A stretch of DNA of 49,817 nt from Promethearchaeota archaeon Loki_b32 (GCA_005223125.1 NJBH01000030.1:1-49817), one strand, 5' to 3'. Counted from the first letter of the stretch, positions 10,590 to 47,583 are shown. Program-made: numbers and translations. Notes: generated by a model from the letters alone, not told the origin.

Positions 10590-11522
10590 ATGGCAGAAAA
10601 AAAAGTTTATTCCAAATTAGGTGAAATGCTTGCGAATGGGGAATTCATTTTAACAGGTGAGCTTGAGCCTGAAAAAACTTGTGATTTGTCACATACAATC
10701 CAAGAAGCCAAGGAAATAGCTCCATACGTCGTTGCTGCCAATGTAACTGATAGTCCACTTGGAATAGTGACAATTAATAGTATGGCAGCCTCTCATATTA
10801 TCCAAAAAGAAGCCGGATTAGAAGTGATTTGGCAGCTTACAGTAAGAGATGTAAATAAATTGGGGATAGCTGGAATGATTATGGGTGGACATGCATTAGG
10901 CTTGAGAAATGTGTTATCTCTTACTGGTGATCATCCTGCTCTCGGAGATATGCCTGAATCTAAACCTGTATTTGACCTTGATTCAGCAACTTTAATTAGA
11001 TTAGTAAAAGATATGGTTGATAAAGGAACAATAAATGGTCATGAAATTGAAAATCCTCCAACTCTTCATGTAGGTGCTGCTGCGAATCCAAACTCAGATC
11101 CCATGGGTGCTGAGATTTTAAAAATTGGAAGAAAAGCTGAAGCAGGTTGTGAATTCATACAAACTCAAGTTGTATATGATTTGGATCGGACTATTGAATT
11201 TTTAAGTGAGATCAAAAAGTATAACGTTCCCATTTTACTTGGAATTTTTCCAATGAAAAGTTATGGTATGGCTAAGGGTTTTGATACATTTGTTCCTGGA
11301 GTTGATGTACCAAAAGATATTTTGGCTAAATGGAAAAGCATCAAAACAGAGTTTAAGGATGATAAAAAGGAACAGAAAAGATTATATGATCAAGCGAACT
11401 ATGAGTTTTTCAAGCCCTTTATTTCAGAGCTCAAGAAAAAGGGTTTGCTAGCTGGTGTGCATTGCATGGCAGTTCATTATCCCCGAATTTTTCCTAAATT
11501 GATGGAAGTTATCAAAGCTTAA
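10590..11522 (+). CDS. metF: Methylenetetrahydrofolate reductase
   Basis: TGELEP, NVTDSP, RDVN, LTGDHP, GAAANP, IQTQVVYD, GVHCMA motifs. Confidence 0.92.
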   Translation: MAEKKVYSKLGEMLANGEFILTGELEPEKTCDLSHTIQEAKEIAPYVVAANVTDSPLGIVTINSMAASHIIQKEAGLEVIWQLTVRDVNKLGIAGMIMGGHALGLRNVLSLTGDHPALGDMPESKPVFDLDSATLIRLVKDMVDKGTINGHEIENPPTLHVGAAANPNSDPMGAEILKIGRKAEAGCEFIQTQVVYDLDRTIEFLSEIKKYNVPILLGIFPMKSYGMAKGFDTFVPGVDVPKDILAKWKSIKTEFKDDKKEQKRLYDQANYEFFKPFISELKKKGLLAGVHCMAVHYPRIFPKLMEVIKA

Positions 11523-12878: not shown

Positions 12879-13970
12879 TTATGAGATTTTAATAGATTTT
12901 CCAACCTTTAAATCAATATAAGCTTCTTTAAATGTATCTTTAAAAGCATTAATACTTTCCATGCTACTATCATGAGGTGAAAGTGCAACTAGCTTAGGAT
13001 TTCTAGCTTTCAGGTAATCTAAAGTGTAATCTCGGTCACTTTTATGCCATGGTTCCCAAGGGGGCCTTCTTGTAACGATAAATTTAAATATAGGCAATCC
13101 TGACCAGGTTATATCATCACCCGGGAATTCTGGGATAGGTAAGTGTAATCCACCTATAATACCATAAATAGGAGTATCAAACAAAGCTTCGACACGGTCG
13201 ATTATCTTTTGGATCCCTTGATGCCCACAACCAACTATGATTAAAATACCTTTTCCTTCTACATTTATTGCTAAAGATTGTTCGAATACTTCTTCAAAAA
13301 AGAACAGAGGGTTTCGTATAGATCCTATAGAAGCGATACCATTTGCAATAACAATTGGTTCTTTCACATGATGAATTTTGGCTGTGGGGTGATTCATTGA
13401 TACTGGTGTGAATGCTTTCACATGACTTATGTTGGCTTGTGTTCCTGAGAGGGAAAAAGTTTTTTTACTAACCCATTTAGAGCCTCCTACATGGTCTCCA
13501 TGCAAATGGGATATGACAACATAGTCGAAATCTTCTAATGTGATCCCTAATGACTTCATATTTTTCATAAGTGGAGAAGGATGTTTTTCCTCATCATTTA
13601 AGCCTGTATCAAATAAAATACCAGTATTATCCGCTTTAATATAATAGGAAACACCCTTCTCTGTTGATAAATCACCTTCACCATGATAATCAATAAGAGG
13701 GAGTATTTCTAAATTCTTAATAGTACCCATATTGTCTAATTTCTTTACCTTAGTACTAGACCACTCATTCTCAGCAAGTTGTTTATTCCTTTCAAATCTC
13801 TTATTCAATACCATTAAGGTGAAAAGAGGGAGCGATAATTGAAATGCTCGCGTCAATTCCATCTCGGAAAGTTTATCCCCCTCTATAATTTTAGAGATAA
13901 TCACACGATCCTTTTTTAAGGGATATTCTCTAAGTAACTTCTTTATTTCTTCTAATCTTATACTACTCAA
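12879..13970 (-). CDS. Metallo-beta-lactamase-fold hydrolase
   Basis: LFDTG, SHLHGDHVGG, EQSL, GCGH, GGLH. Confidence 0.85.
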   Translation of the reverse strand: MSSIRLEEIKKLLREYPLKKDRVIISKIIEGDKLSEMELTRAFQLSLPLFTLMVLNKRFERNKQLAENEWSSTKVKKLDNMGTIKNLEILPLIDYHGEGDLSTEKGVSYYIKADNTGILFDTGLNDEEKHPSPLMKNMKSLGITLEDFDYVVISHLHGDHVGGSKWVSKKTFSLSGTQANISHVKAFTPVSMNHPTAKIHHVKEPIVIANGIASIGSIRNPLFFFEEVFEQSLAINVEGKGILIIVGCGHQGIQKIIDRVEALFDTPIYGIIGGLHLPIPEFPGDDITWSGLPIFKFIVTRRPPWEPWHKSDRDYTLDYLKARNPKLVALSPHDSSMESINAFKDTFKEAYIDLKVGKSIKIS

Positions 13971-35740: not shown

Positions 35741-35871
35741 TGGGAGGGGGGGGATTTGTTCGAGGTCCCCGATACGAGAGCCCGTTGAACCCCCGACCCC
35801 TTGGTCCCAAACCAAGATTCACGCCGTAGAGAAAAACTCTACAGTATCATACCAAGCTAGACCACCCTCCC
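35741..35871 (-). tRNA. tRNA-Pro(TGG) with two non-canonical BHB introns (25/26: 35845-35818, 28 nt; 58/59: 35784-35756, 29 nt)
   Basis: Spliced 74-mer GGGAGGGTGGTCTAGCTTGGTATGAT/TCTTGGTTTGGGACCAAGGGGTCGGGGGTTCAA/ATCCCCCCCCTCCCA gives a full cloverleaf with discriminator A and no encoded CCA; a T-tract follows. Confidence 0.95.
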
Positions 35872-36037
35872 TTTACTAAACAGGTTTCTCTTTTTAAAGA
35901 TTTAATTAAATCCATCTTTAAAGAGATGGGATAATTAATTATACAACTTGATATAAAATCTAATTGTTATATAATACAAACAATAAAAATTAAAATATTT
36001 TTTCAATTTGAATTCTATCTTCTAAAAAGAAATTGAA

Positions 36038-37144
36038 TTAATCTTTATTTAGTGGGAGTGAAAAACAAAATTTGGCTCCTTTATTTCTCCCTTCAGACTC
36101 TACCCATATTTCTCCGCCATGTAATTCAACTATTTTCTTCGAAGTATATAATCCCATTCCCGTTCCCTCAATGCTAATATCCCAACCTTGACCATATCGT
36201 TCAATTTTTCCAAACTGTTTAAAAAGTTTCTTCTTTTCATCTTCTGACAGACCAATTCCATTATCTTGAACAGATACAATTACATAATCCTCAACTTTTT
36301 CAGTTTGAATTTTTATCTCTCCATATGGAGGTGTATATTTTATAGCATTAATGATTAAATGAGTGACAACTTCATAAATTCTCTCTTTCTCAAAATTAAG
36401 AATCATTTTATCTGGAATATCTAAATTTATAAAATTACTTCTTGTTTTTGCTAAACCTCGTAAATCTTTTACGCAAAACCTTATTAAAAACGAAAGATCT
36501 TCTTTACTCGGTTTAAATTGTATTTTACCTGATTCTAATATGGAGCTTTCTAAAAGCTTATTGATAATTGTCTCAAGTCGCTCAGTTCCATTACTGATCT
36601 CACTTAATATTGAGAGGACATCATCATCAAACTTTTCTTTATGTAGCTCTAATAACAGATCAGTAAAACCTTTGATTGAAATAAGAGGTGTCTTTAATTC
36701 ATGTGATGTTCTCTCAATTAATTCTGTTTTCAATTGATTTATTTCTTTCAATTCTCGTTCTGCTTTTTTTTTTTCAGTAATATCCCTTAAAACCCCTATA
36801 ATTTTTGCTTTATTGTTAATTTTTACTAAAGAACCTTTAGCAAACACGTATACGTAATGTCCTTTCTTATGTCTAATTTTATATTCTATAGCAACTATGT
36901 CTTCTCCTCCTATTGCCCTTTGAAAATTTTCAATTATGGTTTCCATATCATCTGGATGGATGTAGCTAAAAAACTGATTCCCAATTACTTCCTCAGGTGT
37001 ATATCCGAGTATATCATAGACTTGTGGACTAAGATATGTAAAGGTTCCATCTAAATCAATCTCAACAATAATATCTAAAATATTATTGATAAGAAATTGA
37101 TACTCTTTACCTGATTTTTTCATTATACTTTTAATTTCAGTCAA
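36038..37144 (-). CDS. PAS-domain sensor histidine kinase
   Basis: PAS (YIHPDD), SHELKTPL, NAIKYT, DNGIG, GTGMGL. Confidence 0.93.
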   Translation of the reverse strand: MTEIKSIMKKSGKEYQFLINNILDIIVEIDLDGTFTYLSPQVYDILGYTPEEVIGNQFFSYIHPDDMETIIENFQRAIGGEDIVAIEYKIRHKKGHYVYVFAKGSLVKINNKAKIIGVLRDITEKKKAERELKEINQLKTELIERTSHELKTPLISIKGFTDLLLELHKEKFDDDVLSILSEISNGTERLETIINKLLESSILESGKIQFKPSKEDLSFLIRFCVKDLRGLAKTRSNFINLDIPDKMILNFEKERIYEVVTHLIINAIKYTPPYGEIKIQTEKVEDYVIVSVQDNGIGLSEDEKKKLFKQFGKIERYGQGWDISIEGTGMGLYTSKKIVELHGGEIWVESEGRNKGAKFCFSLPLNKD

Positions 37145-37324
37145 AATTAACTCAACCCAACGAAATATATTAATTAACTGATTATGATTTGATATAATTA
37201 GAAAGGATTGTTATGAATAATTTAGAAGTTACTTACTTATTTAAAAATTAGCATCTAGGAGTGTAATTTTAAATTTTAATTGATACCTTTTTAATTAAAA
37301 TATGCTTATATTTACATAATTTAA

Positions 37325-37903
37325 ATGATGAAAACTATTAATTTGTTAAAAATAGGAGACCTAAATCATTCTGTCTTAGTGAAATTAAAGAAAAAACTTG
37401 AATTAGGGTTTAAAAGATTTAATTTATCTGTCAATATTGTCCAAGAAGAAATTCCTCTCGAAGAAACAGAGTATAATCCGAGAAAAAGACAATATAATGC
37501 TATAAAAATTTTAAAAAAAATTATAATATATGCTCAGAATAAAAAAGATTTCCATGTGTTAGGTGTCATGGATAAGGATATCTTTTCTAGTGGGTTAAAA
37601 TTTGTATTTGGCAGAGCTATTAAAGCGGAAGGTAGAGCTCCAGAATCTCCTATTGTGGCTCTTATCTCAATTACAAGGCTCAGAGAATCCTTTTATGGTA
37701 GAACTGAAAACAAAGGTCTTTTTGAATTAAGGATATTAAAAGAAGCTATTCACGAACTTGGACATACTTTTAATTTAGACCATTGCAATAAACTTTGTAT
37801 TATGCGATTTTCAAATTCAATATCAGATACAGATGAAAAACCTCCGAAATTTTGTGAAGATTGTGTGAATAAATTAGAGATTTTCTTTAAAAATTCATCT
37901 TAA
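37325..37903 (+). CDS. amzA: Archaemetzincin zinc metalloprotease
   Basis: KEAIHELGHTFNLDHC..CIMRFSNS..DEK..FCEDC. Confidence 0.9.
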   Translation: MMKTINLLKIGDLNHSVLVKLKKKLELGFKRFNLSVNIVQEEIPLEETEYNPRKRQYNAIKILKKIIIYAQNKKDFHVLGVMDKDIFSSGLKFVFGRAIKAEGRAPESPIVALISITRLRESFYGRTENKGLFELRILKEAIHELGHTFNLDHCNKLCIMRFSNSISDTDEKPPKFCEDCVNKLEIFFKNSS

Positions 37904-37908
37904 TCATT

Positions 37909-38910
37909 TTAATATCTTCTTTTATATTTGTTATAAAGTTCCTCACTGATATTCAAGATTTTTTTATTATCTTTAGCTAATTTTATTAAATCAGGTGAAA
38001 TATTTTCCAAACCAAAATAAACACCAGCTAAACTTCCCCCAATCGCTCCGACTGTATCACTATCACCACCAGCGGTTGCAAGCTCAAAAATACACTCTTT
38101 AAAAGAAGTAAGTCTTTTTAAAAATATGAAAATTGAACAAATAACTGTACTTATCGTATATGGATGAACAAACGCTTGACCTAAATATTGTTCAATAAAA
38201 TATGGTGATTTAACTCCAGCTTGAGAAAACTTAATCAGTCCCGATTCAATTGGTATGTTCAAATTCGATTTCAATTTATTTAAAATTTGAATGAATTCTT
38301 CCCAAATTTCTTCTTGGGAATTAGAAATTGAGGTAGTAATGACATCAAAAAATTCATCTATGGAAAAACCAGTTTCTGGATCTTTATCAATTAAAAATGC
38401 AATAGCTCTTGCGATAACTACAGCCCCAGCTGAAGCGGCAGGATGAGAATGGGTAATTATACTGGATTTGATCGCTGTTGTTTTTAATGCTTTAATATCT
38501 TTACTGTAAAATAATCCAACCGGTGCAATCCTCATTGTAGTACCGTTCCCACCAGAATTCGATGCAGCTTCTTTCCAATGAACTCCATACTTTAACTTAC
38601 GGATGGAAGAAATACAACCGTAACCTGGGCCAATAGGAGGATCATCTAACCAATTTATATATTCTCTGATAAAATAATCGATATTAAAGCCATTACCTTT
38701 AATTAAAGCTTCAGCCGTATGAAGTGTTAGTTGTGAATCATCAGTATAGGTTCTAAATAATCGTCTATTATTATGTCTAAATTCTTCAAAATCATCGAAG
38801 TAGGAATATATTTCAGAACGAAGCTTCCCTTCAAAAGGATGTCCTAGTGTATCTCCTATAGTAACGCCTAATAGACAACCTTGAAATTTATCCAATAGAT
38901 CGATTTGCAT
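37909..38910 (-). CDS. ADP-ribosylglycohydrolase family protein
   Basis: GDTLG.PFE, YTDDSQ, GNGTTMRIAP, ITHSH, GGDSDTVGA. Confidence 0.93.
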   Translation of the reverse strand: MQIDLLDKFQGCLLGVTIGDTLGHPFEGKLRSEIYSYFDDFEEFRHNNRRLFRTYTDDSQLTLHTAEALIKGNGFNIDYFIREYINWLDDPPIGPGYGCISSIRKLKYGVHWKEAASNSGGNGTTMRIAPVGLFYSKDIKALKTTAIKSSIITHSHPAASAGAVVIARAIAFLIDKDPETGFSIDEFFDVITTSISNSQEEIWEEFIQILNKLKSNLNIPIESGLIKFSQAGVKSPYFIEQYLGQAFVHPYTISTVICSIFIFLKRLTSFKECIFELATAGGDSDTVGAIGGSLAGVYFGLENISPDLIKLAKDNKKILNISEELYNKYKRRY

Positions 38911-38959
38911 AATAAGTTAGAATTGAGTTAAAATTATAAAATAGTCATTTTTAATTCTT

Positions 38960-39175
38960 TTATTTTTTATGTATGCTTAAAAGATTGAACATAAACTCTC
39001 CATCATTGTACTCAAGAACTTTATATCCTTTTTTATTCAATAAAGTAATCTCACCATTCTTATTGAGAGCAACAAAAATAACACCTGCCAGATCTAAATA
39101 CAAATCTGCTCGAATCTGCTCTTTCTTTAGTCTTTCTTCTATTTTCTCTTTTTCTGTAATATTTTCTAAGGTCAA
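38960..39175 (-). pseudogene. Fragment of a PAS-domain sensor protein
   Basis: ENITEKEKIEERLK..YLDLAGVIFVALNKNGEITLLNKKGYKVLEY, then truncated. Confidence 0.65.
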
Positions 39176-39449
39176 ATTAGTAAAAGCGTCCTAATTCTTT
39201 AATAAACATATAATTCAATATTTTTATTCCATATCCAATGATAAAATTTTTGATATTTAACATTAATTATTTCAGAAAAAGTATTGGTATCAGATCACTT
39301 TATCATCACTGAATTTTGTATCTGACCAGATTTTTTTCTTTAAATACACGTGATTCAATTTCCTTATAATGTTATTAATAAGTCTTATATACGATTTTTA
39401 CTAATAATTGCTTTAATTATTCATTTAAAATTGAAAGGATGATCTATTT

Positions 39450-40349
39450 ATGCCTGGTATTGAAAAATTAAAAAATGTAATCACTGCAATGATCACACCG
39501 TTTAATGATGAACTAGTTCTTGACGAGGAGAAATATAGAGAATTTATACGATTTCAAATCGAAAATGGATGTCAAATCTTGACAATGGGTACAACAGGAG
39601 AAAGTGCTACCATGTCGCATGAAGAACATCACATTGCAATGGATATCGCCCTTGATGAGGCTAAAAAGAGTGATAAAAATCCTTTTGTTTTAGCTGGAAC
39701 AGGAAGTAATTCTACGAAAGAAGCGATTTCCTTATCCCAATACGCTGAAAAAGGGGGAGCAGATGGGTGTTTAGTTGTTGTTCCTTATTATAATAAACCA
39801 GTTCAACATAGTTTAATAGATCATTTTTCAGCAATAGCCGATTCTGTTTCTCTCCCTATAATTTTATATAATGTTCCCAGTCGTACTGGGAGAAATTTAG
39901 AACCGGAAACAGTCTCTAAATTAGCAAATACTAAAGATAACATTGTAGGGATAAAATGCGCTAGCGGAAATATTGATCAAATTACTAAAATTATTAAGAC
40001 AACCCCTGATGATTTTCTTGTTTTAAGTGGAGATGATAGTATGACTTATCATATCATGGCATTAGGAGGTAAAGGAGTTATAAGTGTTGCTTCTAATATT
40101 ATTCCTTTAAAGATAGTTGAATTTACAAGCAGCATGCTTAATAATGATTGGGGAAAAGCAAGAAATATGCAATTAAAACTATATGATCTATTCAAGGTTC
40201 TGTTCATTGAAACAAATCCTGGTCCAGTAAAATTTGCTGCCGAGATTATGGGTTTAATGAATAAAAGGATGAGAATGCCATTGACACCCCCATTAGAAGC
40301 AAATCAAAAGAAAATAAAAGATGTATTACAAAATTTAAATCTAATCTAA
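39450..40349 (+). CDS. dapA: 4-hydroxy-tetrahydrodipicolinate synthase
   Basis: TPF, GTTGES, PYYNKP, LYNVPSRTG, catalytic K in IKCASG, LSGDD, ETNP. Confidence 0.96.
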   Translation: MPGIEKLKNVITAMITPFNDELVLDEEKYREFIRFQIENGCQILTMGTTGESATMSHEEHHIAMDIALDEAKKSDKNPFVLAGTGSNSTKEAISLSQYAEKGGADGCLVVVPYYNKPVQHSLIDHFSAIADSVSLPIILYNVPSRTGRNLEPETVSKLANTKDNIVGIKCASGNIDQITKIIKTTPDDFLVLSGDDSMTYHIMALGGKGVISVASNIIPLKIVEFTSSMLNNDWGKARNMQLKLYDLFKVLFIETNPGPVKFAAEIMGLMNKRMRMPLTPPLEANQKKIKDVLQNLNLI

Positions 40350-40369
40350 TTTATCACTGAGGCTTAAAT

Positions 40370-41191
40370 ATGATTAAATTATTAATCTTAGGACCAACTG
40401 GTTCGATGGGCAGACTAATAAGTAAAATAGCATTAGAAGATGATGAAATTGAGGTTGTTGCAGCTTGCGATGTAAATAACATTGGTAAAGAATTAGGGTT
40501 CATAATAGGTCTAAACGATCCAAATAAAATAAAAGTAGATGATGTCAATAGATTACAAGAAATTATAAATAAAACTCATCCAGATGTAGCAGTAGATTTT
40601 ACAATTGCAAAAGCGACGGAAAAAAATTGTTTACTTTGTGCAGAAAATGGAATAAGATGTGTTATCGGTACAACTGCAATGTCAGAGAAATTTCTCACTA
40701 AATTTGAAGAATTAGTAAGAAATAATAAAGCACCAGCAGTTATTTCACCCAACATGGCTACTGGTGTGAATATAATCTTTAAAATGGCTTCAATATTAAC
40801 AGAATATTTAACTAATTGGGATATTGAAGTGTTAGAAGCACATCACCATAGAAAAATTGATGCACCAAGCGGAACCGCATTGAAGATAGGACAGATAATA
40901 AGTAATACGCTTGGTTCTGATTTTGAAAAAATAGCTAAATTTGGACGAAGTAGAGGGCCCAATAAGCGCACAGTGGGGGCAATAAATGAAATAGGAATTC
41001 ATTCGATTAGAGCAGGGGATATTGTAGGAGATCATACAATACTATATGCTGGTCCTGGAGAAAGAATTGAATTAAGACATCAAGCTCATAGTAGAGAATG
41101 TTTTGCTAATGGGGCTATAAAAGCAATAAAATTTGTAGCAAACGCTAAAGAAAATAAAATTTACTCTACGAGTGAAGTTCTAGGACTGTAG
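40370..41191 (+). CDS. dapB: 4-hydroxy-tetrahydrodipicolinate reductase
   Basis: GPTGSMG, DFT, GTT, EAHHHRKIDAPSGTA, IRAGDIVGDH. Confidence 0.96.
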   Translation: MIKLLILGPTGSMGRLISKIALEDDEIEVVAACDVNNIGKELGFIIGLNDPNKIKVDDVNRLQEIINKTHPDVAVDFTIAKATEKNCLLCAENGIRCVIGTTAMSEKFLTKFEELVRNNKAPAVISPNMATGVNIIFKMASILTEYLTNWDIEVLEAHHHRKIDAPSGTALKIGQIISNTLGSDFEKIAKFGRSRGPNKRTVGAINEIGIHSIRAGDIVGDHTILYAGPGERIELRHQAHSRECFANGAIKAIKFVANAKENKIYSTSEVLGL

Positions 41192-41434
41192 TAGTTAATC
41201 TGACTGAAAATATCAATTAGGATAAGATAAAATTATAAAAAAAATCAGTGCAGATCAGTATTATCATTAATCTTCTTAGTTTTAGATCTTAATTCAGATT
41301 TCATATTGCCAATACTTCATCGAGAGTATTAAAGGGTATCCAAGCCTTAATACTCCCACATTTTATAATTTTATCTCAATAATAAATAATAGATTCAAAT
41401 TTTTATTTTTATTGTTTCACATAACGAAATATTA

Positions 41435-42748
41435 TTATTTTAAATAATCTGGTACTATTTGGTTTCTCAATAAATCGTCATAAGTTTCTTCTTCGCGGAT
41501 TTTAAATGTATTTCCATCATTTATTAAAATTTCTGCGGGTCTTGGTCTTGAATTATAGGGACTACTCATGGTGAAGCCATATGCACCCGCATCTAATATA
41601 GTTAGGTAATCTCCTTCACTTAATTCTGGTAGAACTCTTTCTTTACCAAAAATATCGCCTGATTCACATATAGGTCCAACGATATCGTATTTTGAATTTT
41701 CTTCCTTATCTCTTTCATCACAAACAATTATATGATGATATGAACCATACAATGTGGGTCGAATTAGAGTATTGAATCCCGCATCTATTCCAGCAAACAA
41801 TTTAAAACCATTATCTTTTATGGTATTGACTTGCGTTAAAAGAATACTTGATTCAGCAGAAATATATCGTCCTGGTTCAATAAAAATACAAGGTTCTCCA
41901 ATCTCTCCATTTTCTATACTTTCTTTAAATTTTTTAATTACAATATCGCTATATCTGTTTAAATCAAGGGGATCTGTTTCTGGATGGTATGGTATACCCA
42001 AACCTCCACCAAAATCCACAAATTCAAAATGGATTCCTAGTTCTTTTATGATTTTTTCTATTATTATAAGAAATTTTTCAACAGGCATCTCATAATCGTT
42101 AGCCTCAATAATTCCAGAACCAATATGTTGGTGAATACCAAATTTCTTAAAGCCTAATTCTTTTGCCTTTGAATATACCTTAACCATTTGATGCTCTAAA
42201 ATCCCAAATTTAATATCTTTTCCTGTTGTTATAGTATGAGGATGATGTCCAGCCCCAAATTCTGGATTATACCTAAAAGAAATGAGGATTTTCTCTTTTT
42301 CTAATTTTTCATAAATCTTTGCTAATCTTTTTAATTGGCTGAAACTATCTAAATTTACTAATATATCCTGCTTAACTGAGAATTCGAAATCTTGATCAGT
42401 AAACATATTCCCTGTATAGATTATTCGATCTGGTGGAATTCCCGATTTCAAACATGTATAAATCTCGCCTGTTGATGAACAATCAAAATAAGATCCTTCA
42501 GAGCTTAATATTTTTAAAATTGCTAAATTGGTATTTGATTTTACAGCAAAATAAATCCTATTTTTTTTATATACTAGATTAAGCATATATTTTAATTCTT
42601 TATATCTCTTTCGAATCATCTGTTCATTAATAACATAAATGGGAGTTCCATATTTTTCAGCGATGTCAAGCGTGTTTAAATTCGCAAAGTATAATATTCC
42701 CTGTCTATATTCTAAATCTTTATAATTCAACCAATCAACATAGTTCAT
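41435..42748 (-). CDS. lysA: Diaminopimelate decarboxylase
   Basis: YGTP, FAVKSN, KFG, HQHIGS, DFGGG, EPGR, GPICESGD, GAYG..YNSRPR. Confidence 0.96.
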   Translation of the reverse strand: MNYVDWLNYKDLEYRQGILYFANLNTLDIAEKYGTPIYVINEQMIRKRYKELKYMLNLVYKKNRIYFAVKSNTNLAILKILSSEGSYFDCSSTGEIYTCLKSGIPPDRIIYTGNMFTDQDFEFSVKQDILVNLDSFSQLKRLAKIYEKLEKEKILISFRYNPEFGAGHHPHTITTGKDIKFGILEHQMVKVYSKAKELGFKKFGIHQHIGSGIIEANDYEMPVEKFLIIIEKIIKELGIHFEFVDFGGGLGIPYHPETDPLDLNRYSDIVIKKFKESIENGEIGEPCIFIEPGRYISAESSILLTQVNTIKDNGFKLFAGIDAGFNTLIRPTLYGSYHHIIVCDERDKEENSKYDIVGPICESGDIFGKERVLPELSEGDYLTILDAGAYGFTMSSPYNSRPRPAEILINDGNTFKIREEETYDDLLRNQIVPDYLK

Positions 42749-42804
42749 GATATCACGAAAGTGGGTTAATGAAAATAATAATTATTACACTTTGAGATAA
42801 ATCT

Positions 42805-43686
42805 TTATATCTCGATTCTCTCAAGTATACCGTCGAATACCTTTTCTATTGGACCTTCCATGAGAACTCTTCTCCCTATATAGGTAATTTTTAAATCTCC
42901 TCCATCATTATGTACAACTATAGGTACATTTTCATTGAAAATACCTAATATCGTACCAGCTACAACTGTAGCACATGCTCCTGTGCCACATGATTTAGTT
43001 ATACCAACTCCTCTTTCAAATACTCTTACAATACTTTCTTCCTTAGAAATTGCTTTAACAAATTCAACATTGACTTTATTTGGAAAACGATCATGAGATT
43101 CTATTGCCGCCCCATACATATTTAATTTATCATCATCAAATTCCTCTTCAGTAAAGATAACGGCATGGGGATTTCCCATTGAAACAGCTGTAAAATTAAA
43201 AATTTTATCCAAAATAACTAAAGGTTCATTAACACATCGATCTACATTACTATCCAAAAGCACAGGGATTTCTTCACAATTTAAAATAGGGGGCCCCATA
43301 TCAATCTCCACGCTTTTCACTCGGTTATTAACTATGTTAAGTTTAGCAACCATGATTCCTTTAAGGGTCTCGATCTTGATCTTATCTTTTTTAACAATAT
43401 TACTTTCATAGATGTATTTTGAAAAACATCTAATTCCATTTCCGCACATTTCTGCTTCTAATCCATCACTGTTAAATATCCTCATTTTTATATCGGCATC
43501 TTTCGATTCACATACAAAAATTAAGCCATCTGCTCCGATTGAAAAATGAATTTCACATAATTTAAGTGCTAAGGTTGACTTTTTATTCTCTGGAATTCTC
43601 CATTTGATATCATCAATTATAATATAATCATTCCCTAAGCCATGATATTTTCCAAATTCTAAATTTTTTAAAATAAATTGCTCCAT
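42805..43686 (-). CDS. dapF: Diaminopimelate epimerase
   Basis: KYHGLGNDY, GADG, EMCGNGIRC, GNPH, ERGVGITKSCGTG. Confidence 0.97.
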   Translation of the reverse strand: MEQFILKNLEFGKYHGLGNDYIIIDDIKWRIPENKKSTLALKLCEIHFSIGADGLIFVCESKDADIKMRIFNSDGLEAEMCGNGIRCFSKYIYESNIVKKDKIKIETLKGIMVAKLNIVNNRVKSVEIDMGPPILNCEEIPVLLDSNVDRCVNEPLVILDKIFNFTAVSMGNPHAVIFTEEEFDDDKLNMYGAAIESHDRFPNKVNVEFVKAISKEESIVRVFERGVGITKSCGTGACATVVAGTILGIFNENVPIVVHNDGGDLKITYIGRRVLMEGPIEKVFDGILERIEI

Positions 43687-43825
43687 GTAATATCTAAGGT
43701 ATGTACTTTAGACAATAATATTTAATTTTATTCATACTTCAAAAAAATTACTAAAGTGAATTTTAATTAAAACTCATAATTATAATATAATATATTTTTT
43801 TGAATCAGATACAATAACTTTTATT

Positions 43826-44371
43826 ATGAACTATAAAAAGCTCTCAATATCGATTTTTTTACTACTTTTATTAGTACCAATTATTAACGCAAAAGCCTTC
43901 ACCTATATAGATAATATTAAAGATGGAAATTACATTTTTTTTCTAATTGACTTGGAGAGTGGAAATCATCTTGAACTTAGCTTAACTCATGAGGGAAGTG
44001 GTAATTTTACTCTTTTTATATTTAATTCGCGGCCCAGTGATTCAAATGTAAATGAGGATAAAACTCTAAAATCAAAAATTTTCAATAATCCGCCAACTGT
44101 TGATTACAATTTGGATGATAATCCATATATTAATTACACTGCTACAGTGACAAAGATATATTATATAGAAATCATAATCGTTGGTGGTGGTCCAGATACC
44201 TTTACTTTAATATCTACTCGATATCACGCCAATAATTCCTTAAACGATAAGGATTTAACAAGATATTATCTACCAATAATTCCTGGTTTTCAATTAGAAT
44301 ACTTATTAATCTCACTTACTTTCACAATAGGAGTAATATTTATACTACTTAAAAAAAAGATGAGTAATTGA
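43826..44371 (+). CDS. Secreted/surface protein with a C-terminal IPGF-TM-KKK sorting signal
   Basis: Signal peptide (..INAKA|FT) and C-terminal IIPGF + TM + LKKK. Confidence 0.75.
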   Translation: MNYKKLSISIFLLLLLVPIINAKAFTYIDNIKDGNYIFFLIDLESGNHLELSLTHEGSGNFTLFIFNSRPSDSNVNEDKTLKSKIFNNPPTVDYNLDDNPYINYTATVTKIYYIEIIIVGGGPDTFTLISTRYHANNSLNDKDLTRYYLPIIPGFQLEYLLISLTFTIGVIFILLKKKMSN

Positions 44372-44490
44372 AAATAATATTTTTAATATATCCAAAAATA
44401 TCTTCTTTTAGATAACTATTTTGAAATTAATTAGAAAAAGTTGTTTTATAAGAGCAATATGTAGAAAGCAATAAAGGAGGATAAATAAAA

Positions 44491-46170
44491 ATGTATGAGA
44501 AAAAGCCTTGGTTAAAATTTTATGATAAGCATGTTCCTGAATATATTGATTATCCAAGAACTACAATGTATAACGCTGTATTAAAAACCTCTGAAAAATA
44601 TCCTGAGTCAATAGCTTATGATTTTATGGGATATGAATCTACGTATAAACAATTGATTGAACAAATTGATCAATGTGCTAAAGCCCTATTCAATTTAGGA
44701 TTAAGAAAGGGCGATCGGATGACAATAGCAATGCCAACAACACCTCAAGGGATTATCTGTTTCTATGCAATAAATAAAATTGGGGCAATTGCCAGTATGA
44801 TCCATCCTCTAAGTCCTCCAAAACAGATTGAATTTTTCTTAAACCTGAGTAATAGTACGTTTGCTCTTACAATTGATAAAATATATCCTAATTTCGAGAA
44901 AATTTTTGATAAAACACCCTTAAAAGCATTAATACTAACTCAACTAAGTCAAGATAAAGTTGAAATACCCGAAAATCCACAAATTACTTGGTGGAAATAC
45001 ATCATGGCTAAAGAATATGGTGATATTCCAAAAATTCAAGTAAATCCTGATGAAATGGCAGCAATCTTATATTCTGGAGGAACGACCGGTGTTCCAAAAG
45101 GTATAATGCTCTCTAATTACAATTTTATAGCAGAAGGAACTCAAACCGCGACATGGATGAACTTATCAGATAGAGATTCAGCTCTTGCAATATTACCAAT
45201 TTTTCATGGTTTTGGACTTGGAATATGCGTTAATGCTGTATTTATGGGTGGTGGAAAAAGTATATTAGTTCCCTCATTTACACCTGATCAAGTTGCGGAT
45301 TTAATTAAAACTAAAAAACCAAACTTGATATTTGGGGTTCCTACGTTATATGAAGCTCTTAACCGAAACCCAAATTTCCAAAACACAGACTTAAGCTTTT
45401 TAAAAGCAGCATTTTGTGGAGCAGATACTCTGCCACGTACTACAAAAGAAAAATTTGAAGAAATTTGTAGAAATAATAGCTCGAATGTTCAACTCCGGGA
45501 AGGATATGGATTAACAGAAGCGGTTACTGGAATTTGTGCTATGCCATTAGGTGAATATAGAGAGGGAAGTATCGGAATTCCTTTTCCTGATATGATAATG
45601 AAAATAGTAAATATTGATACATCAGAAGAAGCTCCAATTGGTCAAGAGGGCGAGTTATGTATCAATGGACCTGCCGTCATGTTAGGGTATCTAAACAAAC
45701 CTGAAGAGACTGCTGAAACTTTAAAAAAACACAATGATGGAAAAATTTGGCTCCACACAGGAGATATCGCAACAATGGATAAAGACGGATTCTTCTATTT
45801 CAAAATTAGACTTAAAAGAATGATAAAATCATCTGGTTTTAATGTATATCCCGTTCAGGTCGAAAATATTCTTTATAAACATCCTGATGTCCTTGAAGCT
45901 TGTGTTATTGGAGTACCCGATGAAAAACAAGTCCAAATAGTTAAAGCATTTGTAGTTTTAAAAGATCCTAAAAATGAAAGTAAAGAATTGGAAAAAGTAT
46001 TAATTGAATACTGTACTGAAAATTTAATCAAATGGAGTTGCCCACGAGAAATTGAGTTTACCAATCAATTACCTAAAACATTGGTTGGAAAAATTGACTT
46101 TAAACAGTTAGAGGAACAAGAAATAGCAAAATTAAAAGCAAAAGGAAAATATATCGGAGAAAAAGACTAG
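44491..46170 (+). CDS. Long-chain fatty-acid--CoA ligase (AMP-binding)
   Basis: YSGGTTGVPKG, EGYGLTE, LHTGD, GFNVYP, LPKTLVGK. Confidence 0.95.
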   Translation: MYEKKPWLKFYDKHVPEYIDYPRTTMYNAVLKTSEKYPESIAYDFMGYESTYKQLIEQIDQCAKALFNLGLRKGDRMTIAMPTTPQGIICFYAINKIGAIASMIHPLSPPKQIEFFLNLSNSTFALTIDKIYPNFEKIFDKTPLKALILTQLSQDKVEIPENPQITWWKYIMAKEYGDIPKIQVNPDEMAAILYSGGTTGVPKGIMLSNYNFIAEGTQTATWMNLSDRDSALAILPIFHGFGLGICVNAVFMGGGKSILVPSFTPDQVADLIKTKKPNLIFGVPTLYEALNRNPNFQNTDLSFLKAAFCGADTLPRTTKEKFEEICRNNSSNVQLREGYGLTEAVTGICAMPLGEYREGSIGIPFPDMIMKIVNIDTSEEAPIGQEGELCINGPAVMLGYLNKPEETAETLKKHNDGKIWLHTGDIATMDKDGFFYFKIRLKRMIKSSGFNVYPVQVENILYKHPDVLEACVIGVPDEKQVQIVKAFVVLKDPKNESKELEKVLIEYCTENLIKWSCPREIEFTNQLPKTLVGKIDFKQLEEQEIAKLKAKGKYIGEKD

Positions 46171-46395
46171 ATAGGACATTAATATCCATTTTAAATATCT
46201 TTTGTTTTTTTGCAAGATTCCATAATAAAAATCTTAATTTCGAAAACCGATATGTATGTCTTTTAAATCATTGAGGTTTTCAATAAACAAATTTTATATT
46301 TTGTATAATGTTTTTTTCAATATCAATAAAAATTAAATTAATTAAAGTGATATAAAATTTCCTTCGATGAATTAAGTAAAAAATTAGCAGAGTTT

Positions 46396-47583
46396 ATGAA
46401 AAATATAGAAGAAATTGAGCTCCAAGATGTAGATTTATTCGCAGAATATCTGGAATTTCAAATGTTACCAAGCATAGTTCAAGCTGCCGCTCAAGCAGTA
46501 TTACCAGGAGTTCCTGGAAAAGCTGAGTGGACACCTGCCAAATTCTCACTTGATTTGGATTATCCCGGGAAAATCGAGACAATTGAATTTATTCGCTCAA
46601 ATGGTAAAAAAGCTACTATCGGTGGAGAAGTTGTCCCTCCCTTCTATAACTTTTTGGGACTTGAGAAAAGAAATCCTAATCCTCCGCTCGTTACGTATGA
46701 CGTATTTGATATGGGCGCAAAAATGATGCTTCCAAAACCTATTAAACAAGAATATGGCGAAGTATTAGGAGACCCTGCCGAATGGGCGAAGTTTGCTGTT
46801 GATAAGTTTGGAGCAGAATGCATAACATTCCATTCATTAGAGATCGATCCTGCGATGGGTGATGCTCCAGTTTCACAATCCAGAAAATTTTTAGAAGATA
46901 TTCTTCAAGCTGTTGATGTTCCTGTCATAATTGGTTGCTCAGGAAACAAGAAGAAAGATGTTGAGATGTTTACTGAATTAGCAGCTATCTCCGAAAGTGA
47001 AGTTTTGATGTTATCCGCGGCAGATAAGGCTACATGGGAGGAGGTTATCCCTCTAGCAGTCAAACATGATCATAACTGCTTACTTTGGACCAGTTTAGAT
47101 CTGAACAACCAAATTAAGATGAATAAGGATGCTCTTGAATTAGGATTACCCAGAAACCGTATTGTCATGGACCCAACAGTATGTGCATAATTCATGCAAT
47201 ATATTGGGAAATGCGCGACACTCGGTTATGGGATGGAGTACAGTTTCAGTATTTATCAAAGAATGCGCGTTGCTGGATTATTAGGCGAAACTGATTTAGC
47301 TTACCCAATAAGTGGAGGAACAACAAATGCATGGGGAGCACGTGAGGCATGGATGAGTGAAAAAATAGCACCTGAATGGGGATTACGCCAATATCGAGGC
47401 CCCATATGGGAAATCCTCAATGCTTTAGCTTTATGCACAGTAGGCATTGATCTTTGTATGATGTTCCATCCAGTAGCCGCAAAACATGTTAAAGAAATAA
47501 CTTCTCAATTTTTCGCAGAAGTTCCAAAAGTTTTAGACGATAAAGGTTATTATGATTGGGTTTCAGCAAATTTGAAACGTTAG
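46396..47583 (+). CDS. cdhD: Acetyl-CoA decarbonylase/synthase complex delta subunit, interrupted by a 33-nt BHB intron; join(46396..47177,47211..47583) = 384 aa (may start at ATT 46357)
   Basis: YPGKI, IGGE..PFY, DVFD, DPAEWAK, AVDVPVIIGCSGN..KD, IVMDPT|CATLGYGMEYS, TTNAWGAREAWM, RGPIWE, MFHP. Confidence 0.9.
47178..47210 (+). other. Putative BHB-type (tRNA-endonuclease-spliced) mRNA intron
   Basis: CCCA|AC^A|GTATGTGCAT-AATTC-ATGCAATATAT|TGGG|AA^A; contains an in-frame TAA. Confidence 0.85.

Follow-up and report, generated by a model that had tools for sequence, protein, structure and literature searches.

The gene for the delta subunit of acetyl-CoA decarbonylase/synthase, cdhD, is interrupted by an in-frame stop codon in a 49,817-nucleotide (nt) stretch of DNA from Promethearchaeota archaeon Loki_b32 (GCA_005223125.1, NJBH01000030.1:1-49817; hereafter the window), and a tRNA gene in the same stretch is broken at two places; the question raised by this locus is whether the three interruptions are introns of one type, and whether that type recurs in other genes of the genome. 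The genome, from a Loki-type member of the Promethearchaeia among the Asgard archaea, comprises 4.1 Mb and is 95.5% complete, and for comparison we used the complete 2.27-Mb genome of a relative (G023, CP070805.1). From the evidence given below we hold it highly probable that bulge-helix-bulge (BHB) introns of a single ~30-nt size class are present in a tRNA gene and in cdhD, which is one of no fewer than nine protein genes so interrupted in this Asgard genome; as far as can be judged from the sequences, the mRNAs of these genes very probably depend on the tRNA-splicing enzymes for cleavage and ligation.

The cdhD gene reads as two open reading frames (ORFs) on the plus strand, 46396-47190 and 47194-47583, which lie in the same frame with one TAA between them. 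The Pfam CdhD profile covers the gene at profile positions 7-180, in exon 1 (46396..47177), and 179-227, while the NCBIfam equivalog TIGR00381 matches exon 1 with 189.8 bits (52-275) and exon 2 (47211..47583, including the stop codon) with 131.1 bits (278-376), the match being thus continuous over the joint from position 275 to 278; each exon alone falls below the cut-off of 252.9 bits, and the rough sum of 321 exceeds it. Among the PF03599 matches of the genome that were typed against NCBIfam, cdhD is the sole match to the delta subunit, the stronger match on contig C44 being the gamma subunit; a third, weak PF03599 match lies on contig C18.

Between the exons lies an insert of 33 nt (47178..47210, plus strand) with the in-frame TAA at 47188-90. 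The rule by which we located the cuts was taken from the canonical tRNA intron at 37/38, where on each strand a 4-nt central helix is succeeded by a 3-nt bulge that is cut behind its second base. In cdhD the 5' strand of the central helix, CCCA, is within exon 1 (47172..47175), and is followed by the bulge AC↓A (the arrow marking the cut, after 47177); the 3' strand, UGGG, is within the intron (47205..47208) and leads into the bulge AA↓A, cut after 47210. A hairpin of 6+4 bp abuts the central helix directly, and the scorer returned H=4, h'=6, h=1. After a first comparison with 19 same-genus orthologs, related cdhD genes were surveyed in species-representative genomes having the name Promethearchaeota or Promethearchaeia in their record titles, and 66 of the 80 loci examined were free of inserts. 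Excision at the sites predicted by the BHB rule restores the DPTCATLGYG of these 66 intron-less orthologs, encoded as GAYCCNAC↓NTGYGCNAC; most of the 19 same-genus orthologs have no insert and read GAYCCNAC↓NTGYGCNACNYTNGGNTAYGG, from which the window's insert is seen to separate AC from A at precisely the place that the BHB rule predicts. The ratios of nonsynonymous to synonymous substitution rates (dN/dS) relative to the orthologs were 0.02-0.06 in exon 1 and 0.04-0.12 in exon 2, at saturated dS values (>1); these figures include pairs of species that carry the second cdhD intron described below (site B); between intron carriers that differ by dS >1, the exon 2 ratio was ~0.05. These ratios indicate that exon 2 of cdhD is still under purifying selection.

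The second interrupted gene of the window is a tRNA-Pro(UGG) gene of 130 nt on the minus strand (35742..35871), recognizable as a G+C-rich island (35871..35742) in an AT-rich window of ~30% G+C and broken by two inserts, its mature form measuring 73 nt (74 if the discriminator base is counted). Intron 1 (35818..35845, minus strand; 28 nt) occupies the non-canonical position 25/26 at the junction of the D-arm and the anticodon arm, with a central helix UAUG/CGUG, bulges AU↓A and AA↓U, and a hairpin of 8 bp (H=4, h'=8, h=2), and intron 2 (35756..35784, minus strand; 29 nt) is in the T-loop at 58/59, with a central helix GUUC/GAAC and bulges AA↓C and AA↓A (H=4, h'=3, h=4). In the raw window no tRNA was found by ARAGORN, nor by Rfam at gathering thresholds, because the introns hide it; upon deletion of both introns in silico, ARAGORN called a perfect 74-nt cloverleaf tRNA-Pro(tgg). 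The ortholog in G023 has the same 130-nt layout with both introns present, and 13 of the 14 differences between the two genes are within the 57 intron bases, the near-identical exons accounting for one. In the stems of both introns the pairing is kept in spite of those changes through compensatory double substitutions from G-C to A-U. A tRNA-Pro(GGG) gene elsewhere in the genome (contig C27, 43896-43998, plus strand) likewise has an intron in the T-loop at 58/59, of 29 nt, and none at 25/26.

All three window introns thus have a central helix of 4/4 pairs, 3-nt bulges, a single hairpin, a 3' tetramer that pairs with the 5' exon, a 5' bulge starting with A, and an AA ending. The initial annotation had described three such introns of common design and otherwise unrelated sequence, and all of this withstood our analysis: the tRNA is perfect and cdhD is restored to the ortholog sequence after excision, the listed features are present in each intron, and comparison of the intron sequences confirmed that they are mutually unrelated. 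The AA ending, however, proved to be a feature of only four of the nine mRNA introns described in the next section.

Interrupted protein genes in the Loki_b32 genome

To list further interruptions independently of any motif, we compared all ORFs of Loki_b32 and G023 by tblastn in both directions, in which comparison ~1,960 ORFs were comparable, and recorded the insertions between orthologs of at least 65% identity. For each insert the ends were set where the "spliced" product gave the best protein alignment (ties being kept as sets), blind to structure, and the BHB geometry was scored only afterwards. Twelve inserts of 25-36 nt contained a stop or a frameshift; six of these fitted the strict BHB form and nine the relaxed form, as compared with 0/120 (strict) and 1/120 (relaxed) among decoys with shifted ends. 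The significance comes from this exact match to the alignment-defined ends and not from the fold energy. Open in-frame inserts of the same 25-36 nt behaved otherwise, in that none out of 26 fitted either the strict or the relaxed form (decoys, 0/260).

The nine interrupted genes are cdhD itself (window 47178-47210, plus strand; 33 nt) and those for a Zn-ribbon/LOR-like protein (C36 188607-188636; 30 nt), a 94-aa protein (C24 174991-175019; 29 nt), the ribosomal protein uL11 (C57 12438-12465; 28 nt), a DeoC/LacD-type aldolase (C32 33892-33921, minus strand; 30 nt), an acyl-CoA dehydrogenase (C60 2393-2422, minus strand; 30 nt), an NAD-dependent epimerase/dehydratase (C4 82075-82105, minus strand; 31 nt), a proteasome subunit with the alpha N-terminal signature (C4 22685-22713; 29 nt), and a Ras-like GTPase (C63 17590-17619; 30 nt). 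The last of these is of weak BHB character, having only 3/4 pairs plus 2 bp and no BHB fit, the insert being supported by the continuity of the Ras profile. Such continuity of Pfam profiles over the joints was observed for the proteasome subunit (1-96 and 99-189), uL11 (Ribosomal_L11_N, 1-25 and 27-58), the epimerase (1-126 and 135-240), and Ras (1-58 and 60-159). Nine is a lower bound, because introns common to both genomes are invisible to a census of this design.

With regard to geometry, the central helix is complete (4/4 pairs) and accompanied by a flanking helix in six of the nine mRNA introns, and in the other three either one central pair is missing (3/4) or the flank is short. The 3' bulge opens with A in 9/9 and the 5' bulge in 8/9, and those introns not ending in AA end in AT or AC. 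The outer helix h of the strict form is not attained, being limited to 1 bp for cdhD and to 0-2 bp for the majority of the mRNA introns. Such introns fall into the relaxed HBh' class, for whose cleavage an enzyme of broad specificity is required. Relatedness among the eleven intron sequences of the genome was no better than among shuffles, so that they do not constitute one repeat family.

The common size extends to the tRNAs. With introns allowed, ARAGORN found only 15 tRNA genes in the genome, and several of those calls look spurious (e.g., a "tRNA-Stop", or an 831-nt intron). We cut strict BHB candidates from the intergenic G+C islands and ran ARAGORN again, a crude procedure yielding a minimal-intron solution and used for lengths only; it recovered 23 tRNAs with 15 introns, 11 of which were of 28-32 nt, as against 28-33 nt for the mRNA introns.

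The uL11 gene, which is single-copy in Loki_b32, offers a further case for comparison within the genus. The 28-nt frameshifting intron is present in nine of the 24 same-genus rows aligned, Loki_b32 included; the helix is GCAU/AUGC in eight of the nine carriers and GCAU/AUGU in the remaining one (G016), and the stem covaries, for example from A-U to G-C. A second uL11 insert of 35-36 nt, reading GCATAAAGCATATCGC...GGTAAA, was observed 24 nt upstream of the 28-nt site in three genomes (L162 in G005, L172 in G004, and L170 in G002), the first of which bears both inserts; there is no clean BHB at the alignment-defined ends of this second insert, which may be of a bulge-helix-loop form.

Scanning the Loki_b32 genome by descriptor alone (central helix 4/4, flank of at least 3 bp, A as the first base of the 3' bulge, 20-60 nt, and fused ORFs of no fewer than 50 + 40 codons) returned 315 hits, as compared with 284-315 when the cut sites were shifted by ±9 or ±13 nt, hence no excess, because operon junctions swamp the signal; homology anchoring is needed, since the descriptor does not rise above the decoys. 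This outcome bears on what the initial annotation had expected of the rest of the genome. Its conjecture that other apparently split or frameshifted genes would be BHB-intron mRNAs was borne out by the motif-free census against G023, with eight more genes, whereas its extension to stop-free in-frame inserts as hidden introns found no support (0/26), and the descriptor search inside coding sequences that it proposed gave no excess; moreover, the rule it had set for abandoning the idea, namely that no other coding-sequence insert rises above a shuffled background, would have led to a wrong rejection, because a descriptor-only scan has no power.

Besides the C63 insert, two stop-bearing entries lacked a BHB fit, namely the insert at C9 ~11059-11088 (minus strand) and a second copy of the uL11 locus listed in antisense. 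The C9 insert and another at C20 ~13191-13226 (minus strand) are both stop-bearing, measure ~18-30 nt relative to the G023 orthologs (78-81% identity), and have no BHB fit. In the converse direction, G023 itself carries at 1382056-1382085 (plus strand) a 30-nt BHB intron with the helix TCAG/CTGA and a TAA inside, which is absent from the 90%-identical Loki_b32 ortholog (C3 75833-77993).

Distribution of the cdhD introns among species

Two further species of the cdhD survey (L213 and L246) carry homologous introns, of 33 and 32 nt, at the site occupied in the window (site A), and in both the helix strand CCCA (window 47172..47175) is conserved. Nine other species carry a second, unrelated BHB intron at a site ~9 nt downstream of the equivalent of window position 47210 (site B), which intron measures 36 nt in six of them (L181, L202, L203, L210, L216, and L224; four of the first-surveyed same-genus species have this 36-nt insert) and 32 nt in the other three (L222, L225, and L231). 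The site-B helix is CGCA/UGCG, with bulges AC↓A and AG↓A or AT↓T, and TAA stops are found inside; in one species all seven pairs of the stem are retained despite five substitutions. When cut at the BHB sites, the intron-bearing alleles, 12 out of 12, yield a full-length frame with 120-123 aa after the joint, regardless of the intron length modulo three. Readings in which the insert is translated or the gene is dead are hard to reconcile with this outcome.

We compared the presence of these introns with a cdhD gene tree of 76 sequences, from which ±45 nt around the sites had been left out. Presence at site B needs at least seven changes on that tree, and at site A three; the approximately unbiased (AU) test rejected a single clade of site-B carriers (log-likelihood difference, ΔlnL, 670; p = 1e-51) as well as a single clade of site-A carriers (ΔlnL 222; p = 6e-7). 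The distribution of the cdhD introns contradicts the gene tree. Furthermore, four site-B carriers are more alike in their flanks of ±15 to ±45 nt than all but 0-3 of 3,059 other quartets, and gene-wide the same four are no more alike than non-carriers; part of this flank signal must reflect the constraint that pairing sets on the exons. Either a lateral spread by short tracts or a repeated, precise loss may underlie the pattern.

We put forward, as a tentative proposal to which we give somewhat less than an even chance, that the ~30-nt BHB introns of Loki-type Asgard archaea might be mobile at the population level, the same intron entering the same site in separate species, probably through recombination with short flanking tracts; that protein genes, including core genes in single copy, uL11 among them, might continually gain and lose introns; and that the splicing of mRNA by the tRNA machinery might consequently be a standing, genome-wide requirement in those archaea that are most closely related to eukaryotes. 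How introns arrive is an open question in the 2026 tRNA-intron preprint (bioRxiv 10.64898/2026.10.13.758758), and the cdhD and uL11 cases make that arrival testable, because the same intron is scattered at the same site over the gene tree and the flanks of carriers are locally more alike. In that sense Loki_b32 would constitute a living system where protein genes acquire and lose introns.

Splicing and its alternatives at cdhD

Several observations weigh against the view that cdhD is spliced. The outer helix is weak (1 bp), so that only the relaxed form is attained, and the z-scores of the fold free energy against shuffles are not significant (-0.55 to -1.97), so that for motifs this small the fold energy cannot serve as a criterion. 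Selection on the terminal branch of Loki_b32 alone is not measurable, and an ATG at 47194 within the insert might conceivably serve as the start of a C-terminal polypeptide of its own. From the RNA-Seq runs X19 and X20 we obtained contigs at 36906-37213, 46325-46601, and 45760-46032, none of which bridges 47178-47210, and in a search of exon 2 against longer proteins no spliced product of the Loki_b32 cdhD allele was found among 5.8 billion proteins, the best full-length protein being 94% identical. The splicing of cdhD is accordingly what we infer from comparison, since the RNA contigs stop short of the joint and no spliced product is on record. As to the remaining records, a contig of run X17, labelled metatranscriptomic and flagged "probably DNA", covers 46725-46953 and also stops before the joint. 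Runs X1-X4, from samples that contain the genome, include 92-93% of the words sampled from the gene. One contig of run X5, for which no library type is recorded, connects 47174 with 47218 through 10 other letters and was rejected as spliced RNA; it is the intron-less allele of another species, because 27 of the 348 aligned bases differ (~92% identity). That sediment allele reads GACCC-CACTTGTGCT-ACACT, and intron-bearing and intron-less species appear to co-occur in the same study.

If the cdhD insert were a recent inactivating insertion with a coincidentally BHB-like shape, the gene would be a pseudogene in this lineage, which postulation accounts for the in-frame TAA and for the absence of the insert from 66 of the 80 related loci, and draws on the RNA contigs and the unmeasurable terminal branch just mentioned. 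We nevertheless consider that explanation very unlikely: the ends of the insert match the BHB cut sites to the base, a coincidence found in at most 1/120 decoys; homologous inserts of 33 and 32 nt occur in two distant gene lineages with the downstream frame intact; the parallel intron at site B persists in nine species with an exon 2 dN/dS of ~0.05; the gene is the only delta-subunit (TIGR00381) gene among the typed PF03599 matches; and the same type of insert is found in the single-copy uL11 gene.

Less likely still, in our judgment, is that CdhD is truly split into two polypeptides, of 264 aa and of ~129 aa from the ATG at 47194, which would assemble without splicing. Split genes are known in archaea, and an in-frame ATG does follow 4 nt after the TAA; the break, however, would fall inside the most conserved motif of the protein (MDPTCATLGYG), to whose halves three and seven foreign residues would be added, and with the site-B introns no start codon in frame is available ahead of the conserved Met of GMEY. 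In addition, the 32-nt variants and the introns of 28, 29, and 31 nt in other genes shift the frame, most of them without starts, and the first exon of uL11 would give a fragment of 33 aa.

Least likely of all is that the ribosome bypasses the insert, as in gene 60 of phage T4, or reads through the stop, for even though bypassing needs a hairpin-containing gap of ~30-50 nt and the frame is kept in the 33-nt case, readthrough would insert 11 residues into the conserved motif and would not handle the inserts of 28, 29, 31, and 32 nt, whereas bypassing would face unmatched take-off and landing codons at cdhD (ACA..AAA), would have to act at no fewer than nine unrelated loci, and leaves aside the identical geometry in a tRNA, where translation plays no part.

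Splicing enzymes, proposed mechanism, and known systems

Splicing of the BHB introns, the reading that we prefer, calls for an endonuclease and a ligase, and the Loki_b32 genome encodes two EndA paralogs (PF01974), at C18:184510 and C2:78506, with ORFs of 202 and 205 aa that each comprise the N and C domains, together with one RtcB ligase. The C18 paralog is nearest to the catalytic alpha subunit of Aeropyrum pernix (3P1Z_B), with GLEHS aligned to the GIDHA of that protein, in which alignment the catalytic His is retained; a gapless alignment over A. pernix residues 27-60 places SKPR opposite EK44PR46, and the crenarchaea-specific loop with K44 and R46 is what confers broad specificity (PMC3241643). 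The C2 paralog is nearest to the EndA of M. jannaschii and, in the alignment (EKDSAKF versus DKEHSVY), has lost the catalytic His. An alpha-like and a beta-like EndA would thus fit the (alpha-beta)2 architecture, which has been reported for 44 of 60 Asgard genomes (bioRxiv 10.64898/2026.10.13.758758), and the suggestion of the initial annotation that one relaxed-specificity endonuclease handles both tRNA and mRNA would likewise fit the genome.

In the mechanism we propose, the primary transcript would fold locally, with the four exon bases that end two before the 5' cut pairing with the four intron bases that end two before the 3' cut, and each 3-nt bulge would be presented to the catalytic alpha subunit of an (alpha-beta)2 heterotetrameric endonuclease with the broad-specificity loop. 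The two cuts would free the intron, and RtcB would ligate the exons. The full-length protein would then be produced from the spliced mRNA only, translation of the unspliced cdhD mRNA terminating at the TAA of the intron.

The closest precedent is the cbf5 pre-mRNA of the Crenarchaeota (Desulfurococcales and Sulfolobales; Watanabe 2002; Yokobori 2009, PMC2738675), which likewise has a short BHB intron inside the coding sequence, gained and lost among relatives and removed by the tRNA splicing endonuclease and ligase in hosts that have the broad-specificity (alpha-beta)2 EndA. Whereas cbf5 is a single gene, and the sole coding-sequence BHB intron reported in archaea (PMC7714728), here at least nine genes of one Asgard genome would be concerned, cdhD and uL11 have two sites in different species, and splicing is predicted from sequence comparison. 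The mRNA of Haloferax volcanii HVO_1309, which contains a BHB element in its 5' untranslated region (PMC7714728), is also processed by the archaeal splicing endonuclease; in that instance, however, the element is in an untranslated leader and the enzyme is a narrow-specificity homodimer, whereas in Loki_b32 reading frames are interrupted.

As regards the tRNAs, the literature on Thermoproteales and Asgard introns (Sugahara 2008; PMC11291895; bioRxiv 10.64898/2026.10.13.758758) describes non-canonical and multiple BHB introns, of which kind are the two introns of the window's tRNA-Pro at 25/26 and 58/59, a gene missed by the standard finders, and the last of those reports finds two EndA paralogs in most Asgard genomes, as in Loki_b32. 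Those papers deal with tRNA genes only, with the emphasis on the Atabeya and Freyr classes rather than on the Loki type, and the Asgard papers found in our literature search describe tRNA introns only, with protein-coding genes unmentioned.

Outside the archaea, a formal parallel is provided by HAC1/XBP1, where a small intron is cut from a cytoplasmic mRNA by an endonuclease (IRE1) acting on stem-loops and the exons are joined by RtcB or Trl1, the unspliced message giving a truncated or different protein. There, unlike here, the nuclease and the motif are others and the substrate is single and regulated; regulation is not evidenced for the introns of Loki_b32.

If many protein genes do require splicing in the archaeal lineage nearest the eukaryotes, the view of transcription-translation coupling in that lineage would be altered. 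A practical consequence concerns annotation, since gene callers split or truncate such genes, so that cdhD, of the Wood-Ljungdahl pathway, uL11, a standard phylogenomic and completeness marker, the proteasome subunit, and others would be recorded in Asgard metagenome-assembled genomes as absent, incomplete, or pseudogenic, which misscoring would bias metabolic reconstructions and quality estimates. As to its surroundings, cdhD (46396-47583) is isolated from the gamma subunit, which is encoded on contig C44, and its neighbour in the window is the gene of an AMP-forming acyl-CoA synthetase (44491-46170).

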